The notes: a model not told the origin generated them from the letters alone. DNA of 32,000 bases from Candidatus Hermodarchaeota archaeon (GCA_048886185.1 JBHLKY010000007.1:60001-92000), one strand, 5' to 3'. Shown: positions 2,150 through 10,943, numbered from the stretch's first letter. Translations and numbers: made by a program.

Positions 2150-3637
2150 ATGATAAAGATGGAAACTCCACAAGAATTTAATGAGAAAACTCATAAAAGA
2201 ACATCCCAGGATTATCGTGAAACTTTGATTCAAATGAAACCAAATATCTACATTAATGGGGAAAAAATTGGAAGGGATGATGAAAGGCTGGAAGGAGCTA
2301 TTAATATCATTTCACTTACCTTTGATAAAATTGATGATCCCGAATTTAAGGATTTGTTAAGTGCAGAGTCTCATATTGATGAAGTTGGGCGAATTAACAG
2401 GTTTACCCATATCCACCAAACAGTAGATGACCTCCTGAAAAAACAAGAGCTTACAAGGAGGATATGCCGTTATGCAGGAGGATGTATACTACGTTGTATG
2501 GGTATTGATGCGATGAATGGCTTATCAATTGTAACACATCGAGCTGAGATGATGACTGGACGACCATATAATCAAAGATGGCAAGATTATCTTAAATATT
2601 TCCAGAAAAACAACATAGTTGGATGTTGTGCCCAAACTGATGTAAAAGGTGATAGATCATTAAGACCTCACCAACAAGCTGATCCTGATCTCTATCTTCG
2701 TGTCGTTGAACATCGTGATGATGGAATTGTGGTACGTGGAGCTAAGAACCATATCACGGTTGCAGCTGTTGCTGAAGAGATTATTGTTACTCCTACTCGG
2801 TTTTTAACTCCAGAAGAGGATGAATATGCGGTAGCTTTTTCAATACCAGCAGATTGGGACAAAGTCTATTTAGTTACTCGGGCTGAAAACGTCAGGAAGC
2901 GTGATCACACCCCCTGCCCCTATGCTGAACATGGGGATGTTGAAAATTTCATCATTTTCGATGATACTTTTATCCCGAATGATAGAGTATTTTTAGGAGG
3001 ATATGAAGGAGAACATCAATTCGGTGGATGGTTAGCGTTATTGTTTGCACTCTATCACCGTCATAGCTATACTGGATGCAAAGCTGCCTCTACAGATATC
3101 AAAATGGGTTTTGCAGCTCTAGTATCCGAATATAATGGAGTCGAAGATAAAAAGCATGTTCAATCCAAACTAGCTGGTATGATAAGTAATGCTGAATTAG
3201 TCAATGCAGCAGGCATAGCAGCAGCCCATAAGGCTACAAAAGATGAATCTGGGACAATGATTCCTGACCCAGTATTTTGTAATGTCGGTCGAAAACATGC
3301 TGGTTTAAATTTTTATCATGAGGCTGAAGTTTTAGCTGATTTAGCAGGAGGGCTACCTGCTACCCTCCCTTATGAGAAGGACTTTTTTGACGAGAAAATT
3401 GGGCCTTTTCTCCAGAAATATATTAAAAGAAAGGCTGATGTTCCAGCAGAGAACGTATATAAGCTATTCAGAACAATTTCTGATGCTCTTTGCTCCTCAC
3501 TTGGAGGTGTGGTTGCTGTCGCTGGAGTCCACGGTGGGGGTAGTCCTGCAATGGAGGACATTGCAATCCTTAAGCAATATGATATTGATGAAAGGAAGAG
3601 AATTGCGAAGTACTTAGCTGGGATCTCAGACGATTAA
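2150..3637 (+). CDS. abfD: 4-hydroxybutyryl-CoA dehydratase / vinylacetyl-CoA isomerase-like FAD, [4Fe-4S] enzyme (AbfD/HpaB family)
   Basis: CILRCMGIDA and HRHSYTGCK supply the Cys, Cys, His, Cys cluster ligands of AbfD. Also QTDVKGDRS, GAKNHIT, FDDTFIPNDRVFL and HGGGSP. Confidence 0.82.
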   Translation: MIKMETPQEFNEKTHKRTSQDYRETLIQMKPNIYINGEKIGRDDERLEGAINIISLTFDKIDDPEFKDLLSAESHIDEVGRINRFTHIHQTVDDLLKKQELTRRICRYAGGCILRCMGIDAMNGLSIVTHRAEMMTGRPYNQRWQDYLKYFQKNNIVGCCAQTDVKGDRSLRPHQQADPDLYLRVVEHRDDGIVVRGAKNHITVAAVAEEIIVTPTRFLTPEEDEYAVAFSIPADWDKVYLVTRAENVRKRDHTPCPYAEHGDVENFIIFDDTFIPNDRVFLGGYEGEHQFGGWLALLFALYHRHSYTGCKAASTDIKMGFAALVSEYNGVEDKKHVQSKLAGMISNAELVNAAGIAAAHKATKDESGTMIPDPVFCNVGRKHAGLNFYHEAEVLADLAGGLPATLPYEKDFFDEKIGPFLQKYIKRKADVPAENVYKLFRTISDALCSSLGGVVAVAGVHGGGSPAMEDIAILKQYDIDERKRIAKYLAGISDD

Positions 3638-3659
3638 TCTGAATAATGAAAATAAACCG

Positions 3660-5312
3660 TTAGATTTTCTCTGATAACCTCTTGTCTATCTGAATAGTTA
3701 CTAAGGGGCCAAAAATCTCCTCAGCATCATTAATGGCATCCTTAAATGCATTCATATCCCCCTTCCACGATGGGATTATGTCCTTAAATTTCTCCTCAAA
3801 TGTCTTCAAGAATCTCTGAAGAAGACCGTGTAACTCTGGATCATTTTTGTTTGCAAAAATTGCAGCTGAAAGTCCCATTCTACCATCATCTGAGATGATG
3901 AAATGCGTTCCATGACGTACAAGACTGAGACTCGCTCCTTCCTCTCCAGTTGCCTCAAGCATGAATGAACCTACAGCTGAGAGAGCACCAGAAATTAATG
4001 GTAAATCTACTTGGAGTTCCTTTTCTTTCCTGAAATCATAATGAAAAATAGGCATTCCGGCGTCATTTATCACTAATAATAGGAAAAATTCAAGTGGGGG
4101 AAATGAATCCCCAATCCAAAATAACGGTGCACTAGCAAGGATAGCTATTCCTAGTAGGATAAAAACATTCATAATCAATGTAATGTCTAATATTTGCTCT
4201 GAGACAAACAAGTAACTTACTGGAAAGCCAATGTAAATCCCTAAACCAAGTGATTGAAAATTAAGGGACGAATATTTTCCAATAGAATCCCTAGGAGTCA
4301 AATCCACCCATAAACTGCCATCTAAAGCTGGATGGATAAGCGCGAATGACACTCCAATTATTAAAGCGGAAAGAAGATATGAAGTAGAAGTTTCAGGTAA
4401 CAAACCAACTATTAATGAAGCAAATACTATTCCATATAAAGCTAAAATGATTGACGTTTTCCTTCCCCAACGATCAGTAAGGAACCCCGAGGGAAGACTG
4501 AATAAACAGCTTCCAATAAGTACTGCAAGCCAGAAGGATTTGTACCAATTATGAAATATTGAACCAAACCCCAGAATTATTCCAGCTTGAGCTAAGGATC
4601 CTATAATTAACCCTAGCATCAGATAAATCAAAGTATGTGTCCAATAATACGCTTCAACAGATTGTCGTTTAAGAATTCGAATAAGTGAGGTTGGCCAAGG
4701 ATCGTTTGTCCAGAAGGGCCAATTTTGAGTATTATAATAGAAAATAATGCCAAAAATAATTCCAAAGAAGGCAATAAAAGAAAATATAAAGAAGAAATCT
4801 AAATCAAAGATATTAGTTACGAGAAGCAGAATAATACAGGTAAAGGTTCCTCCAAATATCGCCCAAGAGTACCCTCTCCCACGATGAGTCCATTTTATTG
4901 AAGCACCATATAAACTATGAGCTGTAATCGTTAGGATCCCCATGAAACTACCGAGACAGAAAACTGAAATCACCAATAAGAAACCATTAACTAATTGTAA
5001 CGCAAGCATATCCAAAGCAAGAAAAGATGAACTTCCGATCAATCCAAGTGTCGTGAATCTCCCCAGATGTTTTGGGTATCTATCTATGACCATGCCAGAG
5101 AAAGACCCAGTAATTCCAGCTGGAACCGCCCAGACAATCATAATAAAGAAATCATGGGCCCCAGGAAAGATGTTATTTACATTGATATAATCTATCATGT
5201 CAAAAGAGAATATCAAAACAAAGGCAATGAGTAATACCCATGTAAAAAGCGAGGGCACTAGAACAATTATATAATAAACGAATTTATCATTTTTCAGGCC
5301 ATTATTTGGCAA
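3660..5312 (-). CDS. MFS transporter fused to a C-terminal longin-like domain
   Basis: About 12 hydrophobic segments with MFS motif A in both halves (GMVIDRYPK; GFLTDRWGRK). A ~145-aa soluble tail follows: LLVINDAGMPIFHYDF...LISGALSAVGSFMLE...FEEKFKDIIPSWKGDMNAF. Confidence 0.8.
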   Translation of the reverse strand: MPNNGLKNDKFVYYIIVLVPSLFTWVLLIAFVLIFSFDMIDYINVNNIFPGAHDFFIMIVWAVPAGITGSFSGMVIDRYPKHLGRFTTLGLIGSSSFLALDMLALQLVNGFLLVISVFCLGSFMGILTITAHSLYGASIKWTHRGRGYSWAIFGGTFTCIILLLVTNIFDLDFFFIFSFIAFFGIIFGIIFYYNTQNWPFWTNDPWPTSLIRILKRQSVEAYYWTHTLIYLMLGLIIGSLAQAGIILGFGSIFHNWYKSFWLAVLIGSCLFSLPSGFLTDRWGRKTSIILALYGIVFASLIVGLLPETSTSYLLSALIIGVSFALIHPALDGSLWVDLTPRDSIGKYSSLNFQSLGLGIYIGFPVSYLFVSEQILDITLIMNVFILLGIAILASAPLFWIGDSFPPLEFFLLLVINDAGMPIFHYDFRKEKELQVDLPLISGALSAVGSFMLEATGEEGASLSLVRHGTHFIISDDGRMGLSAAIFANKNDPELHGLLQRFLKTFEEKFKDIIPSWKGDMNAFKDAINDAEEIFGPLVTIQIDKRLSEKI

Positions 5313-5412
5313 TTCCTTCCTTATCCTGATTAATTTATTTCAAGCCACTCTGTAAATACTACTATTTTACAGCTAATGTTCTTATGCAAGTACAAGTTGT
5401 GTTAAAAATGCA

Positions 5413-7224
5413 TTATCGCAATGAAAAAATTGGTTGATTAACCAAATACATTTTAGCCCCTTTAATGTTAAAATTTGATTCATATATTCGCTCTACAGCC
5501 TCATCGAATGGTGTATGGCGTCGTGCTGCCAACAATTGGCTAGTTCTCATCTGCAGAGATCTTCGTTGTAATGGTTCTACTTCTTTTTCACGTGATTGCC
5601 AATCAAGAATTTTATCCACATCTGTTATTGCAATAGCACCAACTACTCGTTCTTGATTCCCATTTACACTGATAATCATTTGTTGTCCATCTTCTGCCAT
5701 GAAAAACAGCTCTTCTATCAATACTTGATTATCACCAAAACAATTACTATACAGCGTCGATATTTCATGATCTAAACCGTTGAAAAATGAAACAACTTTA
5801 CTAGGTAAATCATTTATTGGTTTTGAGTAAAATTTAGTAGTTGTTTCTTCAAAGTCAGTCTCAAAAGTTCCAGCTATGAAATAATTCTTCTCTCGGACGG
5901 TATCAAAAAGCTCAAAAAGATTTATGTCACTAACCGCATCAACGGTGATACCTTGAGCTATAAAAGCGCTTTGAGTCATGAATGGATCTATTCTAACCTG
6001 TTTTTTATCTTCTTTCATCTTAATAGATACTCTAGGCTTTATATGCTTGGGAGTTGGTTTATCATCAATAATTACTTCGGGTTTTTTACCAAATATTACT
6101 CGCTTGATTTTAGCAAAGAAACCTTCTTTTACTGGAGGGATTTCTCCTTTTTTTACTTCTCCAACATCAACAGTCTCTTTTGGTTCTGTAACTGGTACTT
6201 TTATTGGCTTAATCACTGGTTCTTCTTTCACAGTAAATAATGATTTCCAACCATCTTGTTCTAATCCGCGAAGATGAAGAATAGTTAAAACTCGGGAAAG
6301 ATTAAGTTCATCTGCAGGAGTTTGAAGAATAAAGATCGGTTTAGAAGTTGTAAATGGATCTCGAACGATGAAAAAGTGTTCCATTGTATTTAATATACTC
6401 CCCCTTAGAAGTATTAATTGTTTTCCCTCAATATTTTGAGTTAAAAATTGCGAAAGAGAGGGTAATTCAGTCTTGAACTTCAAAATATTTGCTGGTATTG
6501 TGTTCCATAATGAAACTAAAGCTGTTTTTTGAGTATCAAAGAGTAATATGCTTTTACTCTCTTCTATGTTTGGTATAATAGGAGTTGGATTTGTTTCAAT
6601 GATTTGTTTTTGCTCATAATGGACTAAAAGATTCCAGATGTATTCAGTTAATATCTTATAAGCAGTATATTCAGGAACTTCTTTAAATTGTTGAATTTCA
6701 TTATCTGGATACATTCGTTTTAGTGCAGCGGATAAAATTCCAAGCTCCCATCCACATGGGCCTTTTCCAAGAATTTCTGAAGCAATAGCTAAATAAGGTG
6801 TAATATAGCTATCTTTTAGACGAATTAATGCTGCTTTACGTGATAGTCCTCGGCCAGCCATAAATAGGTCTTGGCGCCGAATGGTGGTAGCAATTTTATA
6901 TGCAAGGTAGAAAATTCGCATTAATGAATCTGATGATGAACATCGAGAACGACCTTGCATGAATGAACGTATGATTGAGCTATATCGTTCATTATCCGTT
7001 CCTCCAGAGGGAAGTTCTGAAACTGTAACGATAAAATCGGCAACAAAAAGGGCACGGACAGCATCATCAATCTCAGTTAATCCTTGATTAGAAGCAAAGG
7101 CGATTAATTCAGATTGACTTTTATAGCGATTTAATCTATTTAGAAGATCATATTCCTCTTCTATTTTGTGAAGTATGTTCTTGAGAACTTTTTCATTGGG
7201 TATATTCGGCATCATGACCCTCAC
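5413..7224 (-). CDS. Hypothetical multidomain protein (helical N-terminus, Pro/Lys-rich linker, possible longin/roadblock-like domains)
   Basis: 603-aa uninterrupted ORF, co-oriented with its neighbours and with protein-like composition. No family recognised with certainty. Confidence 0.8.
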   Translation of the reverse strand: MRVMMPNIPNEKVLKNILHKIEEEYDLLNRLNRYKSQSELIAFASNQGLTEIDDAVRALFVADFIVTVSELPSGGTDNERYSSIIRSFMQGRSRCSSSDSLMRIFYLAYKIATTIRRQDLFMAGRGLSRKAALIRLKDSYITPYLAIASEILGKGPCGWELGILSAALKRMYPDNEIQQFKEVPEYTAYKILTEYIWNLLVHYEQKQIIETNPTPIIPNIEESKSILLFDTQKTALVSLWNTIPANILKFKTELPSLSQFLTQNIEGKQLILLRGSILNTMEHFFIVRDPFTTSKPIFILQTPADELNLSRVLTILHLRGLEQDGWKSLFTVKEEPVIKPIKVPVTEPKETVDVGEVKKGEIPPVKEGFFAKIKRVIFGKKPEVIIDDKPTPKHIKPRVSIKMKEDKKQVRIDPFMTQSAFIAQGITVDAVSDINLFELFDTVREKNYFIAGTFETDFEETTTKFYSKPINDLPSKVVSFFNGLDHEISTLYSNCFGDNQVLIEELFFMAEDGQQMIISVNGNQERVVGAIAITDVDKILDWQSREKEVEPLQRRSLQMRTSQLLAARRHTPFDEAVERIYESNFNIKGAKMYLVNQPIFSLR

Positions 7225-7369: not shown

Positions 7370-8128
7370 TTAATTTCCATAGTCTGATTCATGAGGAAAA
7401 TTCAACAGCTTTTTGAGGTGATTGTACACTTCTATTGAGTCGGGATTACATTTATCAATTGATTTAAGAAAATTATAGACATCTCTAGTATCTATATTGA
7501 GGTTAGTTAATGTTTCTATGTTATTTTCCATCCAATTTTTAGCTCGATTATGAATTTTTTGATCATTTTCTACAATAGAATTAAAAACTCCTTGAATTGC
7601 TTTTACAGTCAAATCAGGATTAAAATGTTGAAATAATGAGATGAAATTAAGATACATTGAATTATCAGGAAGTTTTCCCATCCATAGAAAAAGTCGAGCT
7701 GTTCTTCCATAAAAATGAGTAATCTGACGTCCTTTTTTAATGCTAGTAACAATTTGGATGTGATCTTTTTCCTTTAACTTATTTAGATGGAAATATACAT
7801 TAGAAATCTTGATTTGAATAGAGATTCTCTCTTTGATTAATTGAAGCAGCTCTTTGGCAGAGAAAACGTGTCTGACCACGATGAGATCTCTCTCTTCATC
7901 GTATTCTTCTATTCCTTCTCTTAATATATCAAGGATGGCTGATCTCACTTCTTGCTGAATTAAAGTCTCTGGCATTGGTTCTGGTATTTCTTTTATCATA
8001 GCGATTTTTTTCCAATGCTCAATAATCGTTTTCCTGAGATCAGGATCAGAAAAATATTTAGGAAATTTTCTTAATCGTTCCTTCTTTGTTAAGGAATTTT
8101 TAGAATGGGAGGATTTCATTATAATCAA
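7370..8128 (-). CDS. Winged-helix (ArsR-like) transcriptional regulator
   Basis: RSAILDIL...FSAKELL...ISNVYFHLNKLKEKDHIQIV...KKGRQITHFYGRTA is an HTH followed by a beta-wing. The start may be the ATG at 8119. Confidence 0.8.
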   Translation of the reverse strand: MIIMKSSHSKNSLTKKERLRKFPKYFSDPDLRKTIIEHWKKIAMIKEIPEPMPETLIQQEVRSAILDILREGIEEYDEERDLIVVRHVFSAKELLQLIKERISIQIKISNVYFHLNKLKEKDHIQIVTSIKKGRQITHFYGRTARLFLWMGKLPDNSMYLNFISLFQHFNPDLTVKAIQGVFNSIVENDQKIHNRAKNWMENNIETLTNLNIDTRDVYNFLKSIDKCNPDSIEVYNHLKKLLNFPHESDYGN

Positions 8129-8322: not shown

Positions 8323-9660
8323 TTGGAGAAAATAATTTTGATTGAAAGTAATAAGGCATCAATAGAGAATAGAAACCATATTGAACTAAAATACAATCTT
8401 CGGGGATACATTTTTTTTTGGATTGGACAACTAATTTCTTTATTGGGATCAAGTGTTGTTCAATTTTCTATTATTTGGTGGATCACCGTTGAAACTGGGA
8501 GTGAATTCATCTTAGCTTTATCAACATTCTTAGGTTTTGGGCCTACAATGCTTATTACTCCGATAGCTGGTGTTTTTGTCGATAGATGGTCACGAAAGAA
8601 ATTAATAGCTACTGTAGATTTTTTCCAAGCAATAGCAACAGTTGGTTTAATTCTTACCTTTATAATTGGAATTGCAGACATATGGTTTGTTTTAGCAATA
8701 ATAACTTTAAGAGGCGTTTTTCAAGCGTTTCATGCCCCAGCTGTCCAGGCAATTATCCCTTTATTAGTACCTAAGGATAAATTAAGTCGAATGAACGGGA
8801 TAGATTATTTGTTCAATGGCGTAATTCTAATGGTAGGGCCTCTTGTTGGTGCACTACTACTAAATTATTTTATACTTCAAGAAGTTTTGTGGTTGGACGC
8901 TATTACCTTCATGATTGCTATAATTCCCACTATTTTTATTTCTATTCCTTCTATTAAAACATCAACTTTAATAAAAGAAAAGACACCTTTCTTTAATGAG
9001 ATATCTGAAGGATTTAGTTTTATCAAGAATCAACAAGGTTTATTAGCCTTATTGGCTGTTTTTACTGCAGCTAACTTTTTTATGCGCCCCCTCTACGTTT
9101 TATTACCCCTTTTTGTAAAGGATTTTCATCTTGGTGGGCCAGAGGAATTAGCACTGCTTTTTGCAGGAGCACAAGCAGGGATTATTGGTGCTTCAATGAT
9201 CATGTCATCTTGGAAAGGATTCGAGAATAATGCCTATGGAGTAGCTTTAGGTATTTTCATAATGTATTTCGGGTTTGTTATCTGTAGTATAACACCCCAA
9301 GGGGTATATCCTTTACTTATTCTTGGAATATTCTTAAACGGGTTTGGTCTTCCAATTGCAAATGTGTCTTCTCAAACTATTTGGCAAAAAATTGTTCCAC
9401 CAGAGAAATTAGGTCGTGTATATTCAGTACGTTTGACTATTGCACAAGGATCTGGGCCAATAGCCATCATTCTTTCAGGAATTCTTGGGGAGCTACTCGG
9501 AATTACTCCAGTCTTGGTTACTGCAAGCTTGTTTGGAATGGTATTTTTAGGCTATTCGTGGTTTTTTACAAGGTTCCGATATGTTGAGAAAACAGTTACA
9601 ACTATTGAAGCGGTTTCTGGTTTCCCTGTTCCTGATGAACCACTTCCCATATCAGATTAA
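8323..9660 (+). CDS. MFS efflux transporter, DHA3/MefA-like
   Basis: FFWIGQLISLLGSSVVQFSIIWWITVETGS, AGVFVDRWSRKK, PAVQAIIPLLVP and IWQKIVPPEKLGRV; about 12 TM segments. Confidence 0.9.
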   Translation: MEKIILIESNKASIENRNHIELKYNLRGYIFFWIGQLISLLGSSVVQFSIIWWITVETGSEFILALSTFLGFGPTMLITPIAGVFVDRWSRKKLIATVDFFQAIATVGLILTFIIGIADIWFVLAIITLRGVFQAFHAPAVQAIIPLLVPKDKLSRMNGIDYLFNGVILMVGPLVGALLLNYFILQEVLWLDAITFMIAIIPTIFISIPSIKTSTLIKEKTPFFNEISEGFSFIKNQQGLLALLAVFTAANFFMRPLYVLLPLFVKDFHLGGPEELALLFAGAQAGIIGASMIMSSWKGFENNAYGVALGIFIMYFGFVICSITPQGVYPLLILGIFLNGFGLPIANVSSQTIWQKIVPPEKLGRVYSVRLTIAQGSGPIAIILSGILGELLGITPVLVTASLFGMVFLGYSWFFTRFRYVEKTVTTIEAVSGFPVPDEPLPISD

Positions 9661-9851: not shown

Positions 9852-10325
9852 ATGTCACGAAGAGTTTATGTTAAAGGAAAGAGGACATACGCAAAGGGCC
9901 AAGCCCCTGATTTATCAAAATCTAATCGTTTTCAAAACATTATCAGCCTCATGTCTATCCGAGTAGAAAATGTTCATGAAGCTAGTCCAATTGATAGAAT
10001 AGGAGAATATTATTTTGAGGTTGGAGGTAAAGGAGCCTTAAAACATGATTATCGGGTTCCCCATCAAGGAACGATTAATATAAAAGAGAATATGACCTAT
10101 AGCACAAAACAGGACTTTACACTATGGCTTGAATTCGATGAGTCTGATGAAGCAAAAACAAAACAGATTCCAATTAAACTTAAAGAACGAGATGCTACTA
10201 GAGACGATGTTGTTATTAAATCCGAGATTCCAATAGTTTATGGAAGTGGGACTAAATACGAGGTCTTAAAGGGAGAAGGCATAGCTGTGAAGATCAAAGT
10301 CAGTTCACATAAAACTCGCTTTTAA
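9852..10325 (+). CDS. Hypothetical beta-rich protein, possibly C2-domain-like
   Basis: 157-aa ORF with an alternating beta-strand pattern and acidic loops (PIDRIGEYY; IKLKERDATRDD). Confidence 0.7.
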   Translation: MSRRVYVKGKRTYAKGQAPDLSKSNRFQNIISLMSIRVENVHEASPIDRIGEYYFEVGGKGALKHDYRVPHQGTINIKENMTYSTKQDFTLWLEFDESDEAKTKQIPIKLKERDATRDDVVIKSEIPIVYGSGTKYEVLKGEGIAVKIKVSSHKTRF

Positions 10326-10370
10326 AAGTAGCAAATACCATTCTTTAGTAAAAATGGTGGTGCGTAAAAT

Positions 10371-10943
10371 ATGTCTAAGGATGAAAGATCAAGAAAATCT
10401 CGTAAATTTTTAGATAAAATTAAAGAATCTGGAAAAGATTTTGTTGATGGCGTAAAAGAAGAAATCCAGACGGCTCAAACTACTACAAAAGCAAAGGCAA
10501 AGGAATATTCTACTCAAAAAACACAAGAAATAAGAACAACCGTCAAAAAAAGAGCAGCTGATACTAGTACTGCCGAAGAAATATATTTTTCTACCTGGGC
10601 TTGGTTCTGGGCAATGATTTTCAGCTTTTTTGTCTGCCTTTCAATATTCATGTTCAGTATTGTCAATCCACGCTTCATCTTGGTAGGATTTTTAGCACTA
10701 ATTGCCCTTCCCTTTATAACCGTCTGGTGCCTAATACATATGGTTCCTACAATTAAGATCTTTGGATTCACAATTTTTGATAGACGTAGATTGTCATTAC
10801 GCCGACAGTTGAGTTTAGGTAAAGAAATTGCACGTTTGTTTTCCCGTGAATTCTTACAGGAATCTCCTATCATAGCATTTTTCATTTTTGCATTTCTCGT
10901 TATATTTCTCTTATCACTTCTCTTTGCGTTTATCTCTGCTTGA
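10371..10943 (+). CDS. Hypothetical membrane protein (charged N-terminus, long hydrophobic hairpin, C-terminal TM helix)
   Basis: Hydropathy pattern of the translation; 45 bp downstream of the previous ORF and on the same strand. Confidence 0.75.
   Translation: MSKDERSRKSRKFLDKIKESGKDFVDGVKEEIQTAQTTTKAKAKEYSTQKTQEIRTTVKKRAADTSTAEEIYFSTWAWFWAMIFSFFVCLSIFMFSIVNPRFILVGFLALIALPFITVWCLIHMVPTIKIFGFTIFDRRRLSLRRQLSLGKEIARLFSREFLQESPIIAFFIFAFLVIFLLSLLFAFISA

Follow-up and report, generated by a model that had tools for sequence, protein, structure and literature searches.

A conserved fusion of an MFS-type transporter with a longin-fold domain, encoded beside a putative two-longin protein in an Asgard archaeon

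The stretch of DNA analyzed here, called the window, comprises 32,000 nucleotides (nt) of Candidatus Hermodarchaeota archaeon (GCA_048886185.1 JBHLKY010000007.1:60001-92000), and nucleotide positions are window positions unless another contig or locus is named. Its minus strand carries a single open reading frame (ORF) of 550 residues, P0001 (3660..5312, with a TTG start, a stop codon at 3660-3662 and no internal stop), which the ORF list, the translation and the database homologues identify as a major facilitator superfamily (MFS) permease with a C-terminal longin domain. Taken together, the data show that P0001 is a real, conserved gene encoding a secondary transporter of the MFS type with 12 transmembrane (TM) helices, the last of which continues via a linker into a cytoplasmic longin-fold domain. 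The source labels of the homologues place the organism among the Hodarchaeales, an Asgard lineage. Its genome contains three such MFS-longin genes, namely the one in the window and a tandem pair on contig C19 (G000:C19:76400-80000; L027 4468-7973, plus strand) encoding paralogs of 548 and 558 residues, an arrangement that recurs in most genomes of the genus. About 2.3 kb upstream of this tandem lie genes for a 273-residue Ras-family GTPase with an N-terminal extension and for an amino-acid-kinase/metallo-beta-lactamase fusion. The public sequencing runs in which the window locus is present are DNA metagenomes of sediments and estuaries, with no RNA run among those listed.

The TM body of the transporter spans residues ~15-392 (4137..5270, minus strand), and 12 helices are expected in it from the Pfam match, the hydropathy profile and the distribution of positive charges. 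Pfam MFS_1 (PF07690) is matched over residues 56-362 (4227-5147, minus strand) with an E value of 1.7e-11 and 44.1 bits, above the gathering cut-off of 33.4 bits. A typical MFS protein has twelve TM helices arranged as 6+6, its two termini and a long central loop lying in the cytoplasm. The same 6+6 layout emerges from the hydropathy profile, which is not a structure, with 11 clear TM peaks, a weaker TM11 (~345-368) and a long central cytoplasmic loop at residues 192-227. Lysine and arginine residues are strongly biased toward the predicted inside loops (~16, against 1 in the outside loops). The 12-TM MFS body proposed from the DNA alone in an earlier description of this locus, referred to below as the sequence-only reading, is upheld by these observations, and all 12 helices are kept across the MFS-longin family.

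MFS proteins bear at cytoplasmic positions a characteristic motif A (G-x-x-x-D-R/K-x-G-R-R/K), which is expected in loops 2-3 and/or 8-9. In the C-terminal half of P0001, an alignment of the homologues locates a motif-A-like sequence in the TM8-TM9 loop, DRWGRK (4458..4475, minus strand), where D280, G283 and R284 do not vary among 35 homologues. The TM2-TM3 loop GMVIDRYPKHLGR (5058..5096, minus strand) holds a degenerate version of the motif, with G73, D77 and P80 invariant, and the TM regions contain four invariant charged or aromatic residues, R144, W335, D342 and Y347. The longin tail is predicted to be cytoplasmic because the motif-A positions of MFS proteins are cytoplasmic and the topology is positive-inside. 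The protein matches no NCBIfam subfamily, and no homologous solved structure was found by sequence. A guess at the substrate from the neighboring genes was rejected since these differ between loci: genes of the HpaB family, SIR2, metallo-beta-lactamase and Mo-hydroxylase types occur inconsistently, and no metabolic neighborhood common to the related loci was found.

The fusion itself is firmly established. The tail occupies residues 396-550 (nt 3660-4127), close to the ~3660-4100 given by the sequence-only reading, and is entered through an almost invariant junction linker of 15 residues, PLFWIGDSFPPLEFF (residues 396-410; 4083..4127, minus strand), that leads from TM12 to the first longin strand. 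When the tail only was searched for among proteins of comparable overall length, 81 were retrieved, namely an identical 550-residue copy and 80 further ones; all measure ~540-580 residues (or are fragments) and carry MFS_1. These homologues come from NCBI, JGI, ENA and Logan assemblies, and those that are labelled belong to Hodarchaeales, Promethearchaeota and other Asgard metagenome-assembled genomes. Across the phylum's GTDB species genomes, every one of the 21 from the genus of the window has the full-length fusion, single-contig genomes included, as do both genomes of a sister family, typically with 2-5 paralogs per genome. Conversely, when the MFS body only was used as query, every homologue detectable at the sensitivity of a word index also had the tail. 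With a mean column identity of 84%, linker residues 393-407 form the best-conserved stretch of the whole protein, the invariant positions of the junction being P396, L397, D402, S403, P405, P406, L407, F409 and F410. Identity to the query averages 68% for the tail and 48% for the body, and it is higher for the tail in 34 of 34 homologues, which indicates that of the two parts the tail is the more strongly constrained.

The suspicion that a missed stop, a frameshift or the chimeric assembly of an MFS gene and a separate longin gene had created this protein thus retains virtually no probability. The frame is continuous, the junction is the most conserved segment, and the same architecture recurs in the 81 homologues from four independent data sources, as in all genomes of the genus; these data exclude both a missed stop and a chimera of the assembly.

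The longin-fold domain proper covers residues ~408-542 (135 residues; 3687..4091, minus strand), as delimited by an AlphaFold2 (AF2) model, by two structure aligners and by conserved columns. The model, built on 35 homologous tails, has a predicted local distance difference test (pLDDT) score of 78 and a predicted template-modeling (pTM) score of 0.74, and its strands (E) and helices (H) follow one another as E14-20, E26-31, H42-60, E69-72, E75-81, E87-92, H97-113 and H131-147. In a longin fold, a sheet of five strands is covered by a single helix on one side and by two helices on the opposite side. The predicted order, beta-beta-alpha-beta-beta-beta-alpha-alpha, is the longin topology and coincides with the order that had been read by eye from the DNA. 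Both strings quoted in that earlier description are present, LISGALSAVGSF at residues 439-450 (nt 3963-3998) and FEEKF...W.GD...F starting at residue 505 (nt 3786-3800), and the family-wide conserved columns of the tail comprise G419, L439, G442, F505, W516, G518 and F523.

Searched against the PDB with Foldseek, the tail model gave 41 matches at E <= 1e-3 (best E 1.7e-5), and those listed all belong to the longin/roadblock superfamily: TRAPP Bet5/Trs23, AP sigma, Ykt6, Mon1-Ccz1, Fuzzy-Inturned, LAMTOR and roadblock proteins. VIA-align, an exhaustive structure aligner independent of Foldseek, placed the longin domain of Sec22 first (Z 13.0, 124 residues, root-mean-square deviation 3.0) and gave VAMP7 a Z of 12.8, with 120-128 residues aligned. 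All 50 VIA-align matches listed are longin, roadblock or profilin-type folds (Z 13.0-8.5) that cover the whole domain, solved Asgard roadblock and longin structures among them. In the ESM Atlas, the tail model retrieved eukaryotic Sybindin/Sedlin clusters (TM-scores 0.72/0.77) together with several Asgard clusters; the MFS-longin protein itself has no model in this resource, and that of its neighbor P0083 is poor (pLDDT 0.32). The tail is accordingly modeled as a longin-fold domain with the support of two independent aligners, and the structural statements on the MFS-longin protein by itself are held with high confidence. The longin-like tail of the sequence-only reading is likewise borne out, no fold from outside the longin/roadblock superfamily appearing among the matches listed by Foldseek or VIA-align.

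The tail matches no curated longin family (Pfam Longin, Sybindin, Sedlin_N, Clat_adaptor_s, Fuz_longin_1 or others). Only sub-threshold Pfam matches exist, and these in distant members of its own family (21 of 105, with 10 to Fuz_longin_1, 6 to Intu_longin_1 and 5 to Robl_LC7). For this reason the domain is filed by its predicted fold, outside every named curated longin sequence family.

The domain is by no means limited to MFS proteins. When 1.84 billion cluster representatives were scanned in full with HMMER, 344 proteins contained it at E <= 1e-3, and in most of the best 147 of these 344 it directly follows TM segments. The architectures include 7TM proteins of ~370 residues (confirmed in three genomes), further MFS fusions of 515-540 residues (MFS_1 E 1e-19 to 1e-28), proteins of 710-1020 residues that match no Pfam family and have 9-14 TM helices, and proteins of 1400-1650 residues in which a signal peptide and a large outside region are followed by a single TM segment immediately ahead of the domain. 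Stand-alone copies and soluble fusions, for instance to KaiC-like or ParA-like ATPases, occur as well. Every taxon-labelled member is from Asgard archaea (Odin, Loki, Thor, Hodarchaeales), labels and genome hits together covering Loki-, Thor-, Odin- and Hodarchaeales lineages, and in genome searches most genomes of the Lokiarchaeia type contain the domain, within frames of ~750 residues. By sequence, the tail belongs to a large unannotated domain family that is mostly attached to membrane proteins.

Several loci of this family deserve separate mention. One paralogous member of the same genome, P0307, combines a ParA-like ATPase with the longin domain, and a Ras-family GTPase gene comes after it in 9 of 10 loci of the genus. 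Its locus (G000:C6:106000-108700; L026 1488-5697, minus strand) encodes a 567-residue ParA/MinD-like protein with an internal domain of the tail family, then a 178-residue Ras-family GTPase; past a divergent helix-turn-helix gene, two Roadblock/LC7 genes are found there. Proteins of the 7TM type (370-490 residues) with a longin-type domain at or near the C-terminus are encoded at four other loci (L022, L023, L024, L025). At L024 (G016:C1:589000-593500), in a complete genome, two such genes stand in tandem (1786-2904 and 3127-4233) and appear receptor-like, with a longin output domain. Two divergent long ORFs at G000:C8:118869-120411 (open frames of 894 and 873 residues) each contain a more distant copy of the domain. 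Finally, two large bacterial clusters of the ESM Atlas with an OmpA-family annotation (760-802 residues; 6862 and 84 members) have a region that matches the tail model (TM-score 0.79-0.81 by query), so that a longin/roadblock-like module may also be attached to bacterial envelope proteins.

The MFS body might no longer transport and might act purely as a receptor, sensing a ligand or anchoring the protein in the membrane while the longin domain delivers the signal. Such a role would agree with the weak MFS_1 match (44 bits), with the degenerate motif A of the TM2-TM3 loop, with a body that evolves faster than its tail and with the presence of the same output domain on 7TM and single-pass receptor-like proteins. 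The invariant DRWGRK of loop 8-9 and the invariant R144, W335, D342 and Y347 fit a protein that is still cycling, and the preservation of all 12 helices across the family points the same way. A body that does not transport is judged quite improbable.

The gene immediately upstream of the fusion encodes its best candidate partner. P0083 (603 residues; 5413..7224, minus strand) lies on the same strand, behind an intergenic spacer of 100 nt (5313..5412) that measures 22-154 nt in the relatives; the database copy of the protein starts 4 residues later. It has no Pfam match, and its 71 homologues are all labelled as hypothetical proteins of Heimdall- or Hodarchaeales type. The AF2 model (pLDDT 82.6, pTM 0.81) predicts a helical domain (residues 11-206; 6607-7194), followed by two alpha/beta domains, A (residues ~217-330; 6235-6576) and B (residues ~447-588; 5461-5886), with a disordered linker between them (residues 333-409), all on the minus strand. 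Domain A, whose strands and helices begin at residue 224, is predicted to run beta-beta-alpha-beta-beta-beta-alpha, and the alpha/beta elements of domain B are modeled over residues 448-581. VIA-align matched residues ~217-430 to longin domains of Mon1-Ccz1, CPLANE and FNIP2 (Z 6.4-5.6, Mon1 having 6.4 over residues 217-428) and residues 445-586 to those of VAMP7 (Z 7.7) and Sec22 (Z 7.1), and the P0083 matches listed belong nearly all to the longin/roadblock superfamily. Foldseek, run with the whole 603-residue model, found nothing at E <= 1e-3, and only the exhaustive aligner detected the two domains. The presence of two longin-like domains in P0083 is considered probable rather than firm, because these Z scores are middling (7.7 and 6.4) and were obtained with a long model.

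The association of the two genes extends well beyond the window. Coordinates place a P0083 homologue directly upstream of an MFS-longin gene, on the same strand, in six further genomes of the genus (G074, G068, G057, G076, G075 and G073), and the pair is also found at L003, L004, L018 and the P0029 loci, where the MFS-longin proteins are only 46-56% identical to that of the window. For six more homologues (P0003, P0016, P0018, P0020, P0025 and P0059) the pairing was deduced from shared contigs only. A maximum-likelihood tree distributes the paired genes over both halves of the family, with unpaired paralogs nested among them, which suggests that the pairing is ancestral. The P0083 family is, from its distribution, older than the fusion, since it is found in families f5 and f6 and, distantly, in f4. 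Three P0083 homologues (G058:C49, G064:C143 and G057:C251) are interrupted by one in-frame TAG or TAA, through sequencing error, pseudogenization or another cause. A complex prediction of P0083 (A3) with the tail (A2) scored 0.00 in two runs made without controls, and it speaks neither for nor against binding.

Another small gene pair (9852..10943, plus strand) accompanies the P0083 family more faithfully. P0304 (9852-10325, plus strand; 157 residues, beta-rich) has no Pfam family, and P0305 (10371-10943, plus strand; 190 residues) is a small membrane protein with a charged N-terminus, 3-4 TM helices and only a sub-threshold match to Mlp (E 0.006). Homologues of both (phmmer E 1e-71 to 1e-101) stand beside members of the P0083 family at 8 other loci (L004, L005, L009-L012, L015 and L018), usually divergent from the P0083 gene, and they are kept with or without the MFS-longin gene. 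Between P0083 and this pair, the window encodes a 252-residue winged-helix-like protein (7370-8128, minus strand), homologues of which occupy the same place at L003 and L005, and a 445-residue MFS_3-type permease (8323-9660, plus strand).

The tail and its neighbor can be compared with several eukaryotic systems. The GEF-type longins (GEF, guanine-nucleotide exchange factor), represented by Bet5/TRAPPC1 and Trs23/TRAPPC4 (3cue, 2j3t, 7b6d) and by the first longin domains of Mon1-Ccz1 and Fuzzy-Inturned (5ldd, 9rs7, 7q3d), share the fold and topology predicted for the tail (Foldseek E 1.7e-5, TM-score 0.64-0.67; VIA-align Z 10.5-12.8), even if its sequence identity to solved structures is limited to 6-17%. 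The locus would hold three longin-type domains, one on the transporter and two in P0083, which recalls multi-longin platforms. GEF-type longins are soluble subunits of complexes, whereas the domain is covalently joined here to a 12-TM transporter. TRAPP cores combine small stand-alone longin subunits of the Sybindin/Sedlin type with V4R-like Bet3/TRAPPC3 subunits; the present tail is fused to an MFS protein and lacks a Sybindin/Sedlin Pfam match, and no V4R/Bet3 gene occurs among the ORFs of the window. The Rab GEFs Mon1-Ccz1, Fuzzy-Inturned and HPS1-HPS4 have three tandem longin domains per subunit, in contrast to the single one of the transporter and to the helical domain plus two longin-like domains of P0083. 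The longins of the SNARE proteins Sec22, VAMP7 and Ykt6 (3egd, 4afi, 2dmw, 3bw6) are the best structural matches of the tail and likewise reside on membrane-anchored proteins. In SNAREs, however, the longin domain is N-terminal and precedes a SNARE motif and a tail anchor, while the domain described here forms the C-terminal end of a polytopic transporter protein that has no SNARE motif.

Closer in logic are two transporter/longin-roadblock pairs of eukaryotic nutrient sensing, SLC38A9 with Ragulator-Rag, and PQLC2, which recruits the longin-DENN complex C9orf72-SMCR8-WDR41. A solute carrier is physically coupled to a longin/roadblock platform in both; this is an analogy and does not imply homology, since these links are non-covalent and lysosomal and the carriers belong to amino-acid/polyamine and PQ-loop families, not to the MFS. 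Proteins with longin and roadblock domains count among the eukaryote-like hallmarks of Asgard archaea. Their expansion and extensive domain shuffling in these archaea have been described, with fusions that join longin domains to GTPases, TRAPPC3/V4R or two-component domains (Liu et al. 2020, preprint, 10.1101/2020.10.19.343400; Tran et al. 2024, PMC10933270). The main texts of these two papers mention no longin domain fused to an MFS or other TM protein, and full-text literature searches retrieved no paper describing such a fusion.

The tail may be a longin docking module anchored on a transporter and held against its cytoplasmic face. Solved eukaryotic longin and roadblock domains are dimeric platforms, and for this reason the co-encoded P0083 would be its most likely partner. 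The tail and the soluble, putative two-longin protein of the P0083 family would then form a membrane-anchored multi-longin platform. The conformational or substrate state of the transporter could be coupled to the assembly or activity of this platform, or else the platform could regulate the transporter. Taken as a whole chain, this proposal is put forward tentatively, at slightly less than an even chance.

A number of observations weigh against it. All the folds discussed here are predictions, and the tail has no match in Pfam or NCBIfam (even at E <= 10) and no meaningful one among PDB sequences. The longin assignment of P0083 depends on middling Z scores (7.7, 6.4) and a 603-residue model, and a profile-profile comparison of the tail with P0083 detects no sequence similarity to domain A or B. 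The two genes do not always occur together: the paralogs P0022, P0068, P0031, P0075 and P0080 have no P0083 neighbor, and 11 P0083 homologues, including all those of the fusion-less families f5 and f6, have no MFS-longin neighbor. No small GTPase gene occurs among the ORFs of the window, the nearest one on contig C7 being ~70 kb away. A GTPase lies within ~8 kb at 3 of 9 related loci, where ~2 are expected from the density of these genes in the genome, which amounts to no enrichment. A GTPase neighbor was rejected for the MFS-longin gene of the window and is not supported for its relatives. Of the transporter wired to GTPase- or trafficking-type signalling imagined in the sequence-only reading, the structural half stands, with its longin fold and conserved fusion, and for the link to a GTPase the genomic context gives indirect support only, through the putative two-longin neighbor and through the Ras gene beside the paralogous domain-family member P0307.

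In the main rival explanation, the tail would be a self-contained regulatory or oligomerization domain of a working transporter, mediating MFS homodimerization or acting as a cytoplasmic gate or plug, with neither a separate longin protein nor a GTPase involved. Homodimers are common among longin and roadblock domains, and solved Asgard homodimers (9jq8, 9jue, 8yqg) figure among the structural matches of the tail. The very short, invariant linker implies a tight mechanical coupling to TM12, several paralogs keep the tail in the absence of a P0083 neighbor, and the neighborhood is devoid of GTPases. Such a domain would nevertheless leave unexplained the apparently ancestral and repeatedly kept pairing with a two-longin protein, the attachment of the same domain to unrelated membrane proteins, including single-pass ones in which gating would be senseless, and the Ras/roadblock context of the paralog P0307. 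It is regarded as possible, if on balance unlikely, and docking of P0083 on the tail is retained as the preferred explanation.

The docking proposal can be extended, more speculatively, to the GTPases themselves. The genome encodes ~60-70 small GTPases of the Ras/Arf type (a density of ~1 per 70 kb), and the platform might act on one of them as TRAPP, Mon1-Ccz1 and FLCN-FNIP do in eukaryotes. Argued from the analogy with these eukaryotic complexes and from the genomic context of P0307, regulation of small GTPases by such a platform is unlikely or, at its most favorable, doubtful. The most elaborate version would make the MFS-longin protein and P0083 a prokaryotic transceptor, in which a substrate-dependent conformation controls a three-longin platform with GEF or GTPase-activating protein (GAP) activity toward a Ras-, Arf- or Rag-like GTPase, the whole membrane-tethered longin family coupling receptors and carriers to GTPases in Asgard archaea. 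Although improbable as it stands, this version, if true, would describe a possible forerunner of the nutrient sensing that eukaryotes perform at membranes with SLC38A9-Ragulator and PQLC2-C9orf72.

The MFS-longin protein, with its tail more strictly conserved than the transporter, and the putative two-longin protein P0083 offer a small and concrete system for probing what longin domains do in Asgard archaea. If confirmed, the recurrence of one domain after 7TM, MFS, multi-TM and single-pass membrane proteins in several Asgard lineages would suggest that the archaea most closely related to eukaryotes have a general means of signalling from the membrane to the cytoplasm.

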